A DNA stretch of 64,000 nucleotides from a virus. The DNA lies in IMG/VR virus record IMGVR_UViG_3300025437_000010, positions 46,199-110,198 of that record. One strand, written 5' to 3'. Numbering within the stretch: the first letter of the stretch is position 1; each line of letters begins with the position of its first letter. Shown here piece after piece: positions 14,906-47,043 of the stretch. The position numbers and the translations under genes are program-made. Below the pieces are notes generated by a model that worked only from the letters and a program-made list of their open reading frames with translations, had not been told where the DNA came from and ran no database searches.

Positions 14906-15220
14906 CTTGTGTTTTTGTGTAGCATCATAATATAAATATGACCGTGGGTTTTCCACTACAACCAAAAGGGAAAGTAAAATGAGTAATTACTCAAATGCAT
15001 CATATTTGACCAAAACTCCTATGGTAATCAAGGTTTCCAGAGTAGCAGGTCTAATTATTGTAAGTTTGTGCTTGGCAACACTGTACAACGTTTTAGGTCT
15101 ATAAGGAAGTTAGATATGTTTCCATATACAGAAGAAGAATGGGAATATATTTCTAAAGTCAAAATCATGAGTTTGTAACAATCTAACTGGGACAAAATTT
15201 TTAATATTCCAGCAACGATT

Positions 15221-15248
15221 GCCCGAAGGAAACTTCGGGCATTTTGTT
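15221..15248 (+). terminator. Intrinsic terminator
   Basis: GCCCGAAG-GAAA-CTTCGGGC followed by ATTTTGTT. Confidence 0.8.
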
Positions 15249-15302
15249 GTTGACAGGATATATAAATGTGGGTATAAGTAAAGCATTCAACGGAGAAGTG
15301 TC

Positions 15303-15452
15303 ATGAAGAAGGAAGTAATTCAATTTCAGGCGGGTCGTCCCAAAACTCGTGCACACCATGTGTTGTACGGTGATACTCCGTTTAAGCCTAAAATCGTTGA
15401 AAACAAGACGCGCTACAAGCGTAAGCCTAAACATCCGAAAGGGGATTGGTAA
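15303..15452 (+). CDS. ArfA-like small basic protein (49 aa, absent from the ORF track)
   Basis: MKKEVIQFQAGRPKTRAHHVLYGDTPFKPKIVENKTRYKRKPKHPKGDW; GGAGA RBS and TTGACA promoter upstream. Confidence 0.55.
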   Translation: MKKEVIQFQAGRPKTRAHHVLYGDTPFKPKIVENKTRYKRKPKHPKGDW

Positions 15453-15453
15453 C

Positions 15454-15858
15454 ATGAAAGATAAAATCATCAAATTTAAAATTTTGATCCTCGGGGCAGC
15501 ACTTATTGCCGCAATTATTTCGTGTTACGTTATATACAAATATGTCATATACAAACCGTTGATTAATGATCATATTCCAAAACAAATTGATAAGTGCAGT
15601 GATCAAACAGTAGTTGCCGTGGTTTATTCTCTTCGCACAGACCCGCAATCATGGACATCTGATTCATATAATTTGAGTTATGGAAATGCCGTTAAGATAT
15701 GGGTGGCAAACGAAGATTATGGGCTTAATATCGGTCTTGGCAGTGATATATCCAATGGTGCGAAATATGATATGTCTGATGAATGCCGCGCTTTGTTGTA
15801 TTCTGCAACGCAGGATTGGCGCACAAATTACGTCACCACAAAATTGAAGGAAGAGTAA
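15454..15858 (+). CDS. Membrane-anchored hypothetical protein
   Basis: N-terminal TM helix; ATG follows the stop of the ArfA-like ORF. Confidence 0.65.
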   Translation: MKDKIIKFKILILGAALIAAIISCYVIYKYVIYKPLINDHIPKQIDKCSDQTVVAVVYSLRTDPQSWTSDSYNLSYGNAVKIWVANEDYGLNIGLGSDISNGAKYDMSDECRALLYSATQDWRTNYVTTKLKEE

Positions 15859-41261: not shown

Positions 41262-41778
41262 AGCATTAATCCCATCAAAACGAGATATTAAGTTTGCTGG
41301 ACAAGTTTCACTTTTATGCATAGCCATGATGGTGATCGCACTCCCGGTTATACTTGCTGTAGGGACCGCCTTCCTTGGTATTTGTTACCTTATTACTTTC
41401 TTTTTGGGTAGTTATGTCACAAATGTATTCGTATACGTTTTGGGCATATCGTGGTTTTTGTGGATTATGTTCGGTGATACAGTAATGAACAGATACCAAA
41501 ATAATCTCCAAAAAATTAAGGACAAGTAAATGGCAGAAGATCAAAAATTTATCATGGTTGTGATTAGTGTTGTAGTCTATTTATTCATAGCATTTTCTAC
41601 AACACTGACAAATGCCGGTGAGGACATTCATCCTCTTATGGGTGTCTGGTGGCCAATTCTTCTTGTTAGAGAATTATGGAAGTCATTTTATAAGCATGTC
41701 ATCTGTGAAAAGTGGTATTGAATCTGCTTGACAATAGATCGGTTATTTGTTATATTTGTTCTTTAGAAAGGATATAAC

Positions 41779-41800
41779 ATGACCCGTATCGCTATCCGAC
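41779..41800 (+). pseudogene. Relic of the original 5' end of the metallophosphoesterase gene
   Basis: TTGACA(41728)-N17-TATATT, AAAGGA RBS, then ATG ACC CGT ATC GCT ATCCGAC = MTRIA..SD, matching (L)RVAIASD downstream. Confidence 0.6.
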
Positions 41801-42439
41801 ATATGTCGCAGAATATCCTTTGATTTTAGGATGCTTGGATGTTGTTCCATCACGCAACACACCATATATTAGATGAAATGGTAATCCCAATTCTTTACAA
41901 GTATGTCTAAGATTCCCAAAACATTCTATTTTTTTGCCTAAAGGATCAACAATAAGTATCCGTCTTGCTCTGGGATTATTTTTTCCAGAGTTATCTTTAC
42001 CTTTAAAGTTTGCAGATCGTTTCTTCTTAAGTTCATCGGCTTTTTCTTTACCATATAGTTCTTCGTATGATTTACCTTTAAACCTATCTGTAGCAACTTT
42101 TCCTTGTGCCGCTTTCACCTCATCTGTGTGAGTTTTTCCGTACATACCGTTGCCCTCCCCTCGCGCGCCACCACCGTCGCCGTATTCTTCTTTAAGATTA
42201 GCCCACTCTTTACTTTCTACTACATTCCACAAAGCACTGTAATATAGCCCCCATTCCCTAACTTCTTCGTTAGTTTGACATTCTCGCAGGATTTCCGTAG
42301 TGACATCATATCCATGTTTTTTTATATGGTTTTGCCATCTTTTGCCGGAACCTTTATATTTATGTGGGTCTTGTGTAGTTTTTCCGAGGTAATTGAGACC
42401 GGTTTTGTTATGGGTCTTCTTGTACAAATAAATAGTCAT
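41792..42439 (-). CDS. Free-standing GIY-YIG (Seg-like) homing endonuclease
   Basis: IYLYKKTH...YLGKT...YKGSG...W...ANLK; NUMOD3-like GMYGKTHTDEVK; late promoter ATAAATA (42502-42508, minus) and AAGGAG RBS. Confidence 0.9.
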   Translation of the reverse strand: MTIYLYKKTHNKTGLNYLGKTTQDPHKYKGSGKRWQNHIKKHGYDVTTEILRECQTNEEVREWGLYYSALWNVVESKEWANLKEEYGDGGGARGEGNGMYGKTHTDEVKAAQGKVATDRFKGKSYEELYGKEKADELKKKRSANFKGKDNSGKNNPRARRILIVDPLGKKIECFGNLRHTCKELGLPFHLIYGVLRDGTTSKHPKIKGYSATYVG

Positions 42440-42636
42440 TGCTGATACTCCTTAACAGTATTAGAGGGGATGGGCATTGCGAGTGCCGCGATCCTCACTT
42501 TTATTTATCTTTTTCGTTGACATCAATTAATTTTGATGTTATAATCAATCTATCATTTAACAAAGGAATCATAATTATGAATCAGAAAGGAAAAGGTGTC
42601 GGAAGTTTGCGTGTTGCAATTGCTTCCGACCTTTAG
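41801..42636. mobile_element. Homing cassette: GIY-YIG gene, divergent promoters and replacement 5' end of the target gene
   Basis: Bounded by TCCGAC (SD) on the left and CTC CAC (LH) on the right, i.e. inserted inside metallophosphoesterase motif I. Confidence 0.65.
42517..42545 (+). promoter_or_regulatory. Consensus sigma70 promoter for the metallophosphoesterase
   Basis: TTGACA-N17-TATAAT. Confidence 0.85.
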
Positions 42637-43458
42637 CTCCACTTGGAATTTGAAACCATTACTCTTCCAAACACAGAAGGAGCAAAGGTTCTTATCCTTG
42701 CAGGTGATATCGTGACTGCATATGCACTTCATGAGAACCCACACCCTATCATTCCTCCAGCAGAACATGTCATCTGGAAGCCAAGTAAAGGCCAACAATT
42801 GGCTATGCGTTTTCGTGAATTCTTTAACCATGTAAGTGCTGAATATGAACATGTAGTTTACGTTGCTGGAAATCATGAGTTTTATCATGGTAAATATCCC
42901 GATGCATATGACTGGCTTCGTGAAGAAATGAAAAACTATCCAAACATTCATTTTCTTGATCACGATAAAGTTGAAATTGATGGTATCACTTTCCTTGGCG
43001 GCACACTTTGGACCGACATGAACAAGCGCGATCCATCTACGCTGCAGTTGATTGAAGGCATGATGAATGACTTTCACATTATTCGTAATAGTCAGCAGAA
43101 CTACCGAAAGTTTCTTCCTGTGGACGCGGTAGCACATCATGCGTCTACTTTGGGATATATCAGACAGACGGTTGATGCTGATCCGAGCAAGCAATATGTC
43201 GTAATAGGACATATGGCTCCTACTCCCTTGAGCATTCATGCAAACTACAAAAACGATTACTATATGAATGGTGGATATCATAGTGATCTGTCTGAATTTA
43301 TTCTTGATCGTCCTCAGATTACTCATTGGTTCCATGGACATGTTCATAACCCATTTGATTATATGATGGGTGATACTCGTGTTGTGTGTAATCCGCGTGG
43401 GTATAAAGGGCACGATCCCAATGCTGATCTGTTTCAATTGAAGTTTTTGGATATTTGA
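42577..43458 (+). CDS. Calcineurin-like metallophosphoesterase with in-frame TAG (CTT-TAG-CTC) in motif I; candidate ribosomal stop-hop
   Basis: MNQKGKGVGSLRVAIASDL*LHLEF; all later motifs intact: LAGDI, AGNHEFY, TLWTD, GHMAP, HGHVH, NPRGY. Confidence 0.8.
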
Positions 43459-45957: not shown

Positions 45958-47043
45958 ATGACTGATACCAGAGACCTATACAGACTTATCCGCAGCATGG
46001 AAGAAAACCATGAGAGTGATACTATTCAGCTTCATGACCGTGTTGATATTGAACTCAATGAAAATTTTGTCATTGAAACGGGAGTAGTGGGCTTTACAGA
46101 AGATGGAATCATTCTTCATCTAGATGAAGACGCTGCTGAGTTTCTTGGTTTCCATGGTATTTTGAATGAATCAGAAAATGTTGATGAATACATGAAAATG
46201 GGTGCAGACTCCGATGCATCATCTGCCGGTTCATACATGATGGGTGAAGACAGTAATGACAGTCATCCTGCAGAAGGCGCTATTCGTTGGAGAATTCTTC
46301 GTCAGCACCCAGAATTAGTTGGTAAGTATGGTCCGGTAAGAATTATGGCAGCAATTGAAGACGTAGCACATGAGGTGGGTGACGTTGAAGAAATTGGAAG
46401 TTCAGATGTTAGTGGTTGGGTGAAAGAAGTTGTTCATGCCCTTGAATCTGGTAACTATGATCATTTAGACTCCGATGCTGATAACGATGAACTTAATGAA
46501 ATTAAAAAACTTGCTCATGGAAAAAATGAAGAAGAGTTGGAAGAAGGCTGGAAGACTTGGGCACTCGGTGGTGCTGCAGCAATTGCAGCAATGCTTGGCA
46601 TTAGTCACATGGAATATGAAAATGCTATTAAATCTGATCCGCAGTTAGCTAAACTCAATTCGTATTTGGAACGTGCAATTAAAAGCGGCGACGAATATAA
46701 AATCAAAGAACTAAAAGATCGTCTACAAAAAACATATGATCATTATTCAACCACTGGCGATGAAATTCGTGACGAAACCGGAAAACCTGTTGATCCCATG
46801 TATGAAGCAGAGTATCAAGGACGTAAAGTTACGCTTAATAAGCCAATGGCAGGTGATGTCGCCAAAAGTAAAGTCTATGTTAAAAAGCCAAACGGTAAAG
46901 TAGTAAAGGTCAATTTTGGCGATCCAAATATGCGTATAAAGAAAAATAGCCCAGGTCATCGTAAATCATTCAGAGCAAGACATCACTGTGAAAATCCTGG
47001 ACCTAAATGGAAAGCGCGCTATTGGTCATGCCGTGCTTGGTAA
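45958..47043 (+). CDS. Probable head-associated multidomain protein
   Basis: Late promoter ATAAATA; acidic linkers (LNE, LEE); C-terminal EAEYQGRKVTLNKP...KVNFGD...SFRARHHC...ARYWSC. Confidence 0.7.
   Translation: MTDTRDLYRLIRSMEENHESDTIQLHDRVDIELNENFVIETGVVGFTEDGIILHLDEDAAEFLGFHGILNESENVDEYMKMGADSDASSAGSYMMGEDSNDSHPAEGAIRWRILRQHPELVGKYGPVRIMAAIEDVAHEVGDVEEIGSSDVSGWVKEVVHALESGNYDHLDSDADNDELNEIKKLAHGKNEEELEEGWKTWALGGAAAIAAMLGISHMEYENAIKSDPQLAKLNSYLERAIKSGDEYKIKELKDRLQKTYDHYSTTGDEIRDETGKPVDPMYEAEYQGRKVTLNKPMAGDVAKSKVYVKKPNGKVVKVNFGDPNMRIKKNSPGHRKSFRARHHCENPGPKWKARYWSCRAW

Follow-up and report, generated by a model that had tools for sequence, protein, structure and literature searches.

How can a phage gene stay useful when a stop codon lies inside its first metal-binding motif? 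This question is raised by a metallophosphoesterase (MPE) gene in a 64,000-nt stretch of viral DNA (the window), positions 46,199 to 110,198 of IMG/VR record IMGVR_UViG_3300025437_000010. The window is the last 64 kb of this 110-kb phage contig, whose completeness is about 30%. Contigs bearing relatives of the MPE gene are 350-365 kb long, and the phage is therefore taken to be a jumbo phage. The open reading frame (ORF) from ATG 42577 encodes MNQKGKGVGSLRVAIASD and then continues CTT TAG CTC CAC TTG GAA TTT. MPE motif I is complete only if six nucleotides are skipped, and the product then reads S-D-L-H-L-E-F. The comparisons described below make it quite probable that the ribosome performs a hairpin-assisted programmed +6 hop ("stop-hop") here, encoded on a mobile cassette and restoring S-D-L-H-L-E-F.

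Apart from the stop codon, the gene appears intact. From the landing codon the frame is open for 273 codons and ends at TGA 43456-58, and the GD, GNHE, GH and GHxH motifs are all found in the MPE frame downstream of the TAG. The 271-aa part matched Pfam Metallophos (PF00149) with an E value of 2.4e-8 and 35.1 bits (gathering cut-off 21.5), and phrog_1649 matched the MPE with an E value of 3e-48. A ribosome binding site (RBS), AAGGA, lies at 42563-67 ahead of the ATG, behind a consensus promoter (Table 1). The sequence-only reading of this DNA had described the same frame with its CTT TAG CTC, the intact later motifs, the consensus promoter and the RBS, and all of these were confirmed. Megablast of the region against GenBank phages gave no match, and phage protein matches had at most 36% identity.

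The exact 271-aa product that starts just 3' of the stop is recorded on 18 JGI and 11 Logan/ENA contigs. The public gene calls conflict with one another. The calls on short ENA contigs (P0001, P0002 and P0128) are 292-293 aa long with Q at the stop position, and the JGI and Logan calls (P0122 and P0123) are 271 aa long and begin at the TTG after the stop. Neither version matches the likely 291-aa hop product.

To see what occupies this position in relatives, we scanned JGI metagenomes and viral contigs for A-x-A-S-D and H-[LF]-E-F separated by any three codons. All matches that continued into an MPE were Leu-stop-Leu: 7/7 viral loci and 13/13 MPE loci among the 80 metagenome matches. The other 67 metagenome matches lacked the motifs of the family downstream. 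After removal of duplicates there were 15 distinct six-base alleles, including that of the window. Their stop codon is TAG in 13, TGA in one (L090) and TAA in one (L168), and none of the alleles found with the any-three-codon pattern had a sense codon there. Both Leu codons come from the CTN box throughout: nine alleles have CTT>CTA, three have CTT>CTC, and CTT>CTT, CTG>CTG and CTA>CTA are each seen once. With a second pattern we recovered a 16th allele (L277/L281/L284), which reads CTT TAG TGA CTT, with two stops in an open 290-aa frame. The codons for take-off and landing form a matched pair, which a single tRNA can read, in all 15 six-base alleles and in the double-stop allele. Fifteen distinct alleles with Leu-stop-Leu, and not one with a sense codon in the middle, are far more than chance would produce. 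When bacterial and archaeal genomes were scanned for stop-hop junctions, we obtained 36 chance matches and no phosphoesterase.

The double-stop element lies at L277:2985-3063 on the minus strand, with a GIY-YIG-like gene upstream, and a 9-nt hop is predicted for it. Its ancestral K-G-K leader is frameshifted, and an internal ATG is the start.

About 170 relatives lack the hop. All of them have D-[LIVF]-H and a short M-K-I-A-L-A-S N-terminus. Cassette-less relatives read M-K/T-I-A-L-A-S-D-L-H-L-E-F, the uninterrupted sequence that had been predicted for them. Compared with these, the window and 11 other alleles have in common a K-G-K/T-G-V-G-S/G-L-R-I-A extension. Downstream of the hop, all 14 distinct complete frames are full length (263-303 codons) and end at the C-terminus of the family. 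In the trio L148/L155/L161, which has an unusual N-terminus in common and plausibly shares the insert by descent, the ratio of nonsynonymous to synonymous substitution (dN/dS) is 0.09-0.14 at dS 0.17-0.76. The Leu-stop-Leu arrangement is thus maintained and the downstream part is under purifying selection in the trio, as the sequence-only reading had anticipated. Two of the outcomes that it had named as refuting were not seen: there was no cassette-bearing relative without the stop among the alleles found and no further disabling mutation in the complete downstream frames.

A +6 hop is the only reading that keeps the D-x-H spacing invariant, and it explains why any stop can serve as the middle codon, why two stops are tolerated and why the Leu codons stay in the CTN box. 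The Leu-to-Leu skip of 6 nt put forward earlier therefore gains support from the alleles with all three stops, the double stop and the matched CTN codons. The hairpin described next supports it as well.

The mRNA can fold just upstream of the take-off codon. GTCGGAAGY, the V-G-S codons of the cassette-specific extension, is the reverse complement of GCTTCCGAC, and this 3' arm ends just before the take-off codon. The window hairpin also has an inner UUGC/GCAA stem, and AAGG (42593-96) could lengthen the stem onto CUUU (42631-34), which would cover the take-off codon and the U of UAG. In single-sequence folds the window gave -23.4 kcal/mol (z -3.5), and the hop alleles ranged from -20 to -29 kcal/mol with z as low as -4.0; the double-stop allele has a hairpin too (z -3.1). 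A 9-bp helix anchored at the Asp codon is found in 13/14 distinct upstream sequences of the six-base alleles and also in the double-stop allele. As a control we used 68 hop-less alleles, in which the longest Asp-anchored helix is 6 bp. The mean minimum free energy was -17.8 kcal/mol for hop alleles and -4.3 kcal/mol for the 68 hop-less alleles. No conserved structure downstream of the landing codon was seen in single-sequence folds of the hop alleles.

MAFFT alignments set the hairpins of L005 and L148 out of register, so a 12-sequence in-register alignment and a covariance model were used instead. In this alignment, 11 distinct sequences form every one of the nine core pairs (100% paired). 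Double changes in the core stem are GC>CG in L090 and AU>GC in L010, L117 and L168; the single change AU>GU occurs in five sequences. The covariance model built from the hop sequences recovered every hop allele and, at E below 0.6, matched no hop-less allele. The 5' arm persists whether it encodes V-G-S, is translated in a shifted frame (G-R-K-L in the L148 group) or lies in the 5' untranslated region (5'UTR), as in L005 and L277. Since the arm is kept across two reading frames and in 5'UTRs, selection acts on the RNA and not on the peptide. In addition, folding favors the sense over the antisense strand in 11/13 sequences, with a mean advantage of 2.6 kcal/mol. The G-U pairs and this advantage point to the phosphoesterase mRNA as the folded molecule. 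We found no conserved nascent-peptide signal; the L148 extension is in another frame, and in L005 and L277 the stop comes after just 9 residues. Together these results support the covarying hairpin as an independent recoding signal at the take-off site.

We infer the hop itself, its efficiency and the role of the hairpin from these sequence comparisons, and we picture the hop as follows. Transcription would start from the cassette's own promoter and translation from ATG 42577. With peptidyl-tRNA-Leu on CUU 42631-33 and UAG in the A site, release would be slow. The tRNA would unpair, the mRNA would slide by 6 nt and the same tRNA would re-pair with CUC 42637-39, after which decoding would resume at CAC. 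tRNA-Leu(GAG) decodes CUU and can also decode CUC. Nine bases would give one Leu, and the product, ...A-S-D-L-H-L-E-F..., would be 291 aa long with its D-x-H metal-binding motif restored. The predicted junction tryptic peptide is VAIASDLHLEFETITLPNTEGAK. At take-off the 3' arm of the hairpin would be inside the ribosome, with the 5' arm and the loop already out. Refolding of the hairpin would then pull the mRNA forward toward the exit, as with the 5' stem-loop of T4 gene 60.

Table 1. Positions in the window of the hop site, its cassette and the upstream features.
Feature	Position	Strand	Remarks
Orphaned promoter-like site of the presumed original gene start	41728..41756	+	TTGACA-17-TATATT with TG, 11/12
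Relic start ATG ACC CGT ATC GCT (M-T-R-I-A)	41779..41793	+	RBS-like AGAAAGGA precedes; resembles native MTKIALASD (L013)
Free-standing GIY-YIG-like homing endonuclease gene (HEG), 215 aa	41792..42439	-	phrog_314 "homing endonuclease", E 2e-13
G+C-rich stem-loop between nuclease start and MPE promoter	42464..42496		part flagged terminator-like
Cassette-borne sigma-70-type promoter	42517..42545	+	TTGACA-17-TATAAT, 12/12, extended -10 TG
Replacement N-terminal coding segment, 19 codons, MNQKGKGVGSLRVAIASDL	42577..42633	+	last codon is take-off CTT 42631-33
Hairpin	42598..42630	+	5' arm GTCGGAAGT 42598-606 (V-G-S codons) pairs with 3' arm GCTTCCGAC 42622-630 (A-S-D codons)
In-frame TAG, putative slow-to-decode A-site codon	42634..42636	+	TAG/TGA/TAA in relatives
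Landing codon CTC (Leu)	42637..42639	+	CTN pairs matched in all alleles
MPE body, His of motif I (H-L-E-F) to stop TGA	42640..43458	+	motifs II-V intact

Upstream of the cassette promoter lies a homing endonuclease gene on the other strand. Its product has the N-terminus I-Y-L-Y ... Y-L-G-K-T. On this protein Pfam found NUMOD3 alone, below threshold; the GIY-YIG domain was seen only in the relative L009, with an E value of 0.005, below the cut-off. PDB searches with the nuclease sequence and with its profile gave no match. In the AlphaFold2 model residues 1-80 have a predicted local distance difference test score (pLDDT) of 74-88, and the best Foldseek match of the model is the I-TevI catalytic domain, 1mk0 (probability 1.00, TM 0.60 by target, E 0.018).

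A nuclease gene lies within about 1.2 kb upstream in 13/16 alleles. These genes belong to at least four PHROG families and occur in both orientations. The GIY-YIG-like nucleases of phrog_314 are those of the window, L005, L006, L007, L009 and L099, and the L277 nuclease is grouped with this set by its N-terminal motif only. L010, L108, L155 and L168 have phrog_15526 nucleases, L004 has an HNH nuclease of phrog_99 and L090 an HNH nuclease of phrog_655. The hop alleles L117, L148 and L158 have no nuclease gene upstream. Comparison of L148 with L155 revealed a clean 760-nt nuclease indel, with the hop in both. The relatives L003, L011 and L012 are without the nuclease gene, which is a presence/absence polymorphism.

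The cassette also moves between MPE genes. L004 and the hop-less L179 are 97% identical in a stretch whose start coincides with the His codon 3' of the landing codon, and their upstream flanks are 71-72% identical; this step places a recombination junction at the insert. The window protein and P0002 (90% identical) have identical first residues, about 90 of them, and diverge further 3', which looks like co-conversion. The nearest sampled relatives of hop alleles are mostly hop-less, so the cassette is polyphyletic on the gene tree. Linkage, indel, junction and polyphyly agree with the mobile nuclease-linked cassette that the sequence-only reading had proposed. The hop-less L014 and L015 have nuclease genes upstream as well, which makes the intergenic site a nuclease hotspot in general; the hop is one result among several there.

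Several other observations concern these nucleases and their surroundings. The window nuclease (41795-42439) is 83% identical over residues 1-156 to the one at L005:8439-9065, which lies beside the same gene, and the C-terminal parts of the two are unrelated. The C-terminal part of these nucleases is presumably DNA-binding, and the pattern suggests domain swapping within the cassette family. A second GIY-YIG-like paralogue of the same phage (219 aa, 48% identical) lies outside the window at L002 1108-1767 on the minus strand, which corresponds to G000:C1 about 15059-15718; it sits between a small ORF and a PhoH-like gene. A stretch of about 43 nt that is nearly identical to the G+C-rich stem-loop region of the window adjoins the GIY-YIG genes of L005, L014 and L015, and this stem-loop travels with the nuclease family. 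In the hop-less L014 and L015/L017, GIY-YIG genes and the same stem-loop lie about 150-1000 nt upstream of the phosphoesterase start. There the motif codons are AGT (Ser) and TTG (Leu), and such synonymous codons may be an alternative route to nuclease immunity. L155 and L161 share an identical tract that runs from 1,200 nt before the stop to 540 nt after it. Beyond this tract they are a mosaic of 57-100% identity in 30-nt windows, which indicates recent recombination inside the phosphoesterase gene.

The six bases, the N-terminal extension encoding the hairpin and the promoter belong to one mobile cassette that accompanies homing endonuclease genes. The presumed nuclease target is the conserved D-x-H coding sequence, which the insert probably interrupts; the carrier would then be immune and the enzyme would still be made. 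That the insert protects carrier DNA from the nuclease is our inference from the position of the junction and from the T4 precedent.

The same mobility raises the possibility of a null allele spread by nuclease drive. Translation would then simply end at the TAG, and the downstream frame would be intact as the invasions are recent. A driving element can bear a cost, and hop alleles are indeed scattered among hop-less relatives; L004 is 98% identical to L179, and L108 is 75-79% identical to L286-L290. We nevertheless regard this explanation as unlikely. Mere disruption gives no cause to keep a promoter, an RBS, an in-frame start and the A-S-D codons across diverged cassettes. It also leaves unexplained the matched Leu codons, the changes from stop to stop only, the gap of 6 or 9 nt and the covarying hairpin. 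The hop persists without a nuclease gene in L117, L148 and L158. Furthermore, dN/dS is 0.09 for L148 against L155 at dS 0.6, and 0/14 complete frames are decayed.

Several points count against a programmed hop and have to be set beside this evidence. The nearest sampled relative of most hop alleles is hop-less; acquisition therefore looks recent in most cases, which makes an intact downstream frame weak evidence of function. The relatives of L004, L117 and L108 are mostly hop-less, and no long-term vertical persistence of the hop was seen among them. Since the search patterns behind most alleles required A-S-D and H-L-E-F, these codons look conserved in part through ascertainment. Near the hop (-75 to +60) L148 and L155 show about 100% identity, which could reflect a conversion tract and not selection. 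As to the hairpin, the stem of L005 is just 6 bp (z +0.6), and covariation is modest, with double changes in 2 pairs, 11/500 shuffles reaching the score and alleles related by descent. The ENA protein calls P0001, P0002 and P0128, which are protein records alone, have Q at the stop position. Finally, synthetic Leu-stop-Leu hops in E. coli are said to be inefficient, at about 1%.

Readthrough of the stop by a near-cognate or suppressor tRNA would give D-L-X-L-H, with two extra residues. It fits the frame, which is the same on both sides of the stop, and some ENA gene calls have Q there. We consider it very unlikely, since all three stops occur, one allele has two consecutive stops, and a sense codon was never found at this position though one mutation would make it. 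Readthrough would also break the D-x-H spacing, which is invariant in the approximately 170 relatives, and leaves the matched Leu codons unexplained. The contig uses the standard code: coding density is 84% under table 11, TAG ends 6/115 ORFs, and no tRNA genes were found on the 110-kb contig. With the TGA and TAA variants in relatives, these results led us to reject both a reassigned TAG and a suppressor tRNA encoded by the phage. We also rejected a +1 frameshift at CUU-UAG, because the frame is unchanged across the insert. Transcriptional slippage was rejected on the same ground, there being no homopolymer run either.

Termination at the TAG followed by re-initiation at TTG 42643 would make the 271-aa ORF, an enzyme without the first Asp. 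This is where the JGI and Logan gene calls begin. However, the matching codon is TTA or CTC in other alleles, so the start is not conserved; no Shine-Dalgarno (SD) sequence precedes TTG 42643, and the product would be without the Asp and His of motif I. Such a course is highly improbable. We give least credence to the idea that the inverted repeat and the insert act on DNA only, as a nuclease-site decoy or a recombination scar with an incidental RNA hairpin: the recombination junction is exactly at the insert and the repeat adjoins nuclease genes, but on the opposite strand or in a DNA cruciform the G-U pairs (AU>GU in five sequences, U-G in the window) would become A-C mismatches, the sense RNA is on average the more stable, and the family and orientation of the nuclease vary.

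The programmed hop is thus the reading we retain; one part of the sequence-only reading did require correction. A relic of the original 5' end of the gene had been placed about 840 nt upstream of the hop, and 41801-42636 had been taken for an insert lying cleanly between the D and L codons. The promoter, the RBS and M-T-R-I-A of the relic stand (Table 1). In contrast, TCCGAC (41795-800), read before as Ser-Asp, is also the last two codons (Val-Gly) of the nuclease and is homologous to GTGGAT in a related nuclease. M-T-R-I-A is therefore the only safe part of the relic, and its "SD" part is doubtful. Excision of 41801-42636 would not restore the frame because of an extra A at 41794, which is part of the nuclease stop codon. 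No other allele has a comparable relic, so the duplication arose locally in the window and does not belong to the general plan of the cassette. The orphaned promoter is now directed antisense into the nuclease gene. In 41728-41822 it reads across a 14-codon ORF (MTRIAIRHMSQNIL) into the 3' end of the nuclease, and a terminator-like hairpin at 41967-41991 is on the same strand. The promoter could give antisense control of the nuclease.

The core of the element has a laboratory counterpart. Weiss et al. (1987) and O'Connor et al. (1989) reportedly obtained synthetic stop-hops in E. coli reporters with CUU UAG CUA and similar sequences. This core is identical to that of the natural alleles, 9/15 of which are CTT TAG CTA; the window has CTT TAG CTC. 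The synthetic hops were laboratory constructs of low efficiency with no stimulator, whereas here the sequence is natural, conserved, located in a catalytic motif and paired with a hairpin. The prfB gene (RF2) uses a +1 programmed frameshift at CUU UGA C. There too a shifty tRNA-Leu sits on CUU with a stop in the A site, and L090 has exactly CUU UGA C. However, a +1 shift would put the phosphoesterase out of frame; the frame is kept here, so 6 nt would be skipped. The stimulator also differs, being a hairpin here and an SD sequence 3 nt upstream in prfB. In T4-like phages, the free-standing GIY-YIG and HNH homing endonucleases of the Seg and Mob types usually leave immunity to point differences in the target. 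The nuclease genes described here resemble them in their intergenic position, presence/absence polymorphism and co-conversion of flanking markers. The putative immunity is different, since it would come from an insert that the ribosome must undo.

To our knowledge, programmed bypassing has one well-studied natural example in bacteria and phages, T4 gene 60 with its homologues, which is long and complex. Bonocora et al. (2011) reportedly placed the 50-nt bypass of gene 60 within a MobA homing-endonuclease element. The two systems are alike in their matched take-off and landing codons, the stop right after take-off and an mRNA stem-loop 5' of take-off. A homing endonuclease accompanies the insert in each system, and the T4 insert protects carrier DNA from its nuclease. 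Compared with gene 60, the gap is 6 nt (9 nt in one allele) instead of 50, and the codons are Leu CUN instead of Gly GGA. The Leu codons lie at the 3' foot of the 5' hairpin, and we see no stop-holding take-off stem-loop, no internal SD sequence and no forward-slippage barrier. A conserved nascent-peptide signal is missing here, some alleles having a 9-residue N-terminus. The interrupted gene encodes an MPE here and a topoisomerase in T4, the nucleases here come from several unrelated families, and the systems have no sequence homology. Our literature search returned only the T4 gene 60 work and its metagenomic homologues, with no phosphoesterase hop and no natural Leu-stop-Leu hop. The 5' stem-loop of gene 60 has been proposed to drive forward movement of the mRNA (Manning & Atkins, bioRxiv 10.1101/2022.08.31.505936; 10.1101/2024.12.09.627546). 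In synthetic hops over a slow-to-decode codon, 9 nt specify one amino acid (10.1101/2022.08.31.505936). The mitochondrial "byp" elements of Magnusiomyces capitatus are also natural, mobile short inserts in essential coding sequence with matched-codon hopping; they differ in being 27-55 nt long and mitochondrial, with an unassigned sense codon first and no nuclease linkage (10.1101/2022.08.31.505936).

Bypassing linked to a homing endonuclease is thus of a known kind, and a natural Leu-stop-Leu version in a phosphoesterase would be new. On balance we favor a broader view, in which the alleles form a family of miniature mobile "hop cassettes" (promoter, hairpin leader and Leu-stop(-stop)-Leu) in jumbo-phage phosphoesterase genes. 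Such cassettes would immunize the D-x-H DNA against several unrelated families of homing endonuclease, and a hairpin would drive the +6 or +9 hop without a nascent-peptide signal. No programmed bypass known from nature would be simpler, and it would have evolved independently of T4 gene 60. For annotation it points to a systematic error, in which pipelines shorten the protein to 271 aa or translate the stop as Gln. If the hop is true, a natural 6-nt stop-hop with a single hairpin would be a minimal system for the study of bypassing, bearing on peptidyl-tRNA release, mRNA movement and the choice of landing site. It would also mean that selfish nucleases and recoding signals have become allied more than once in evolution.

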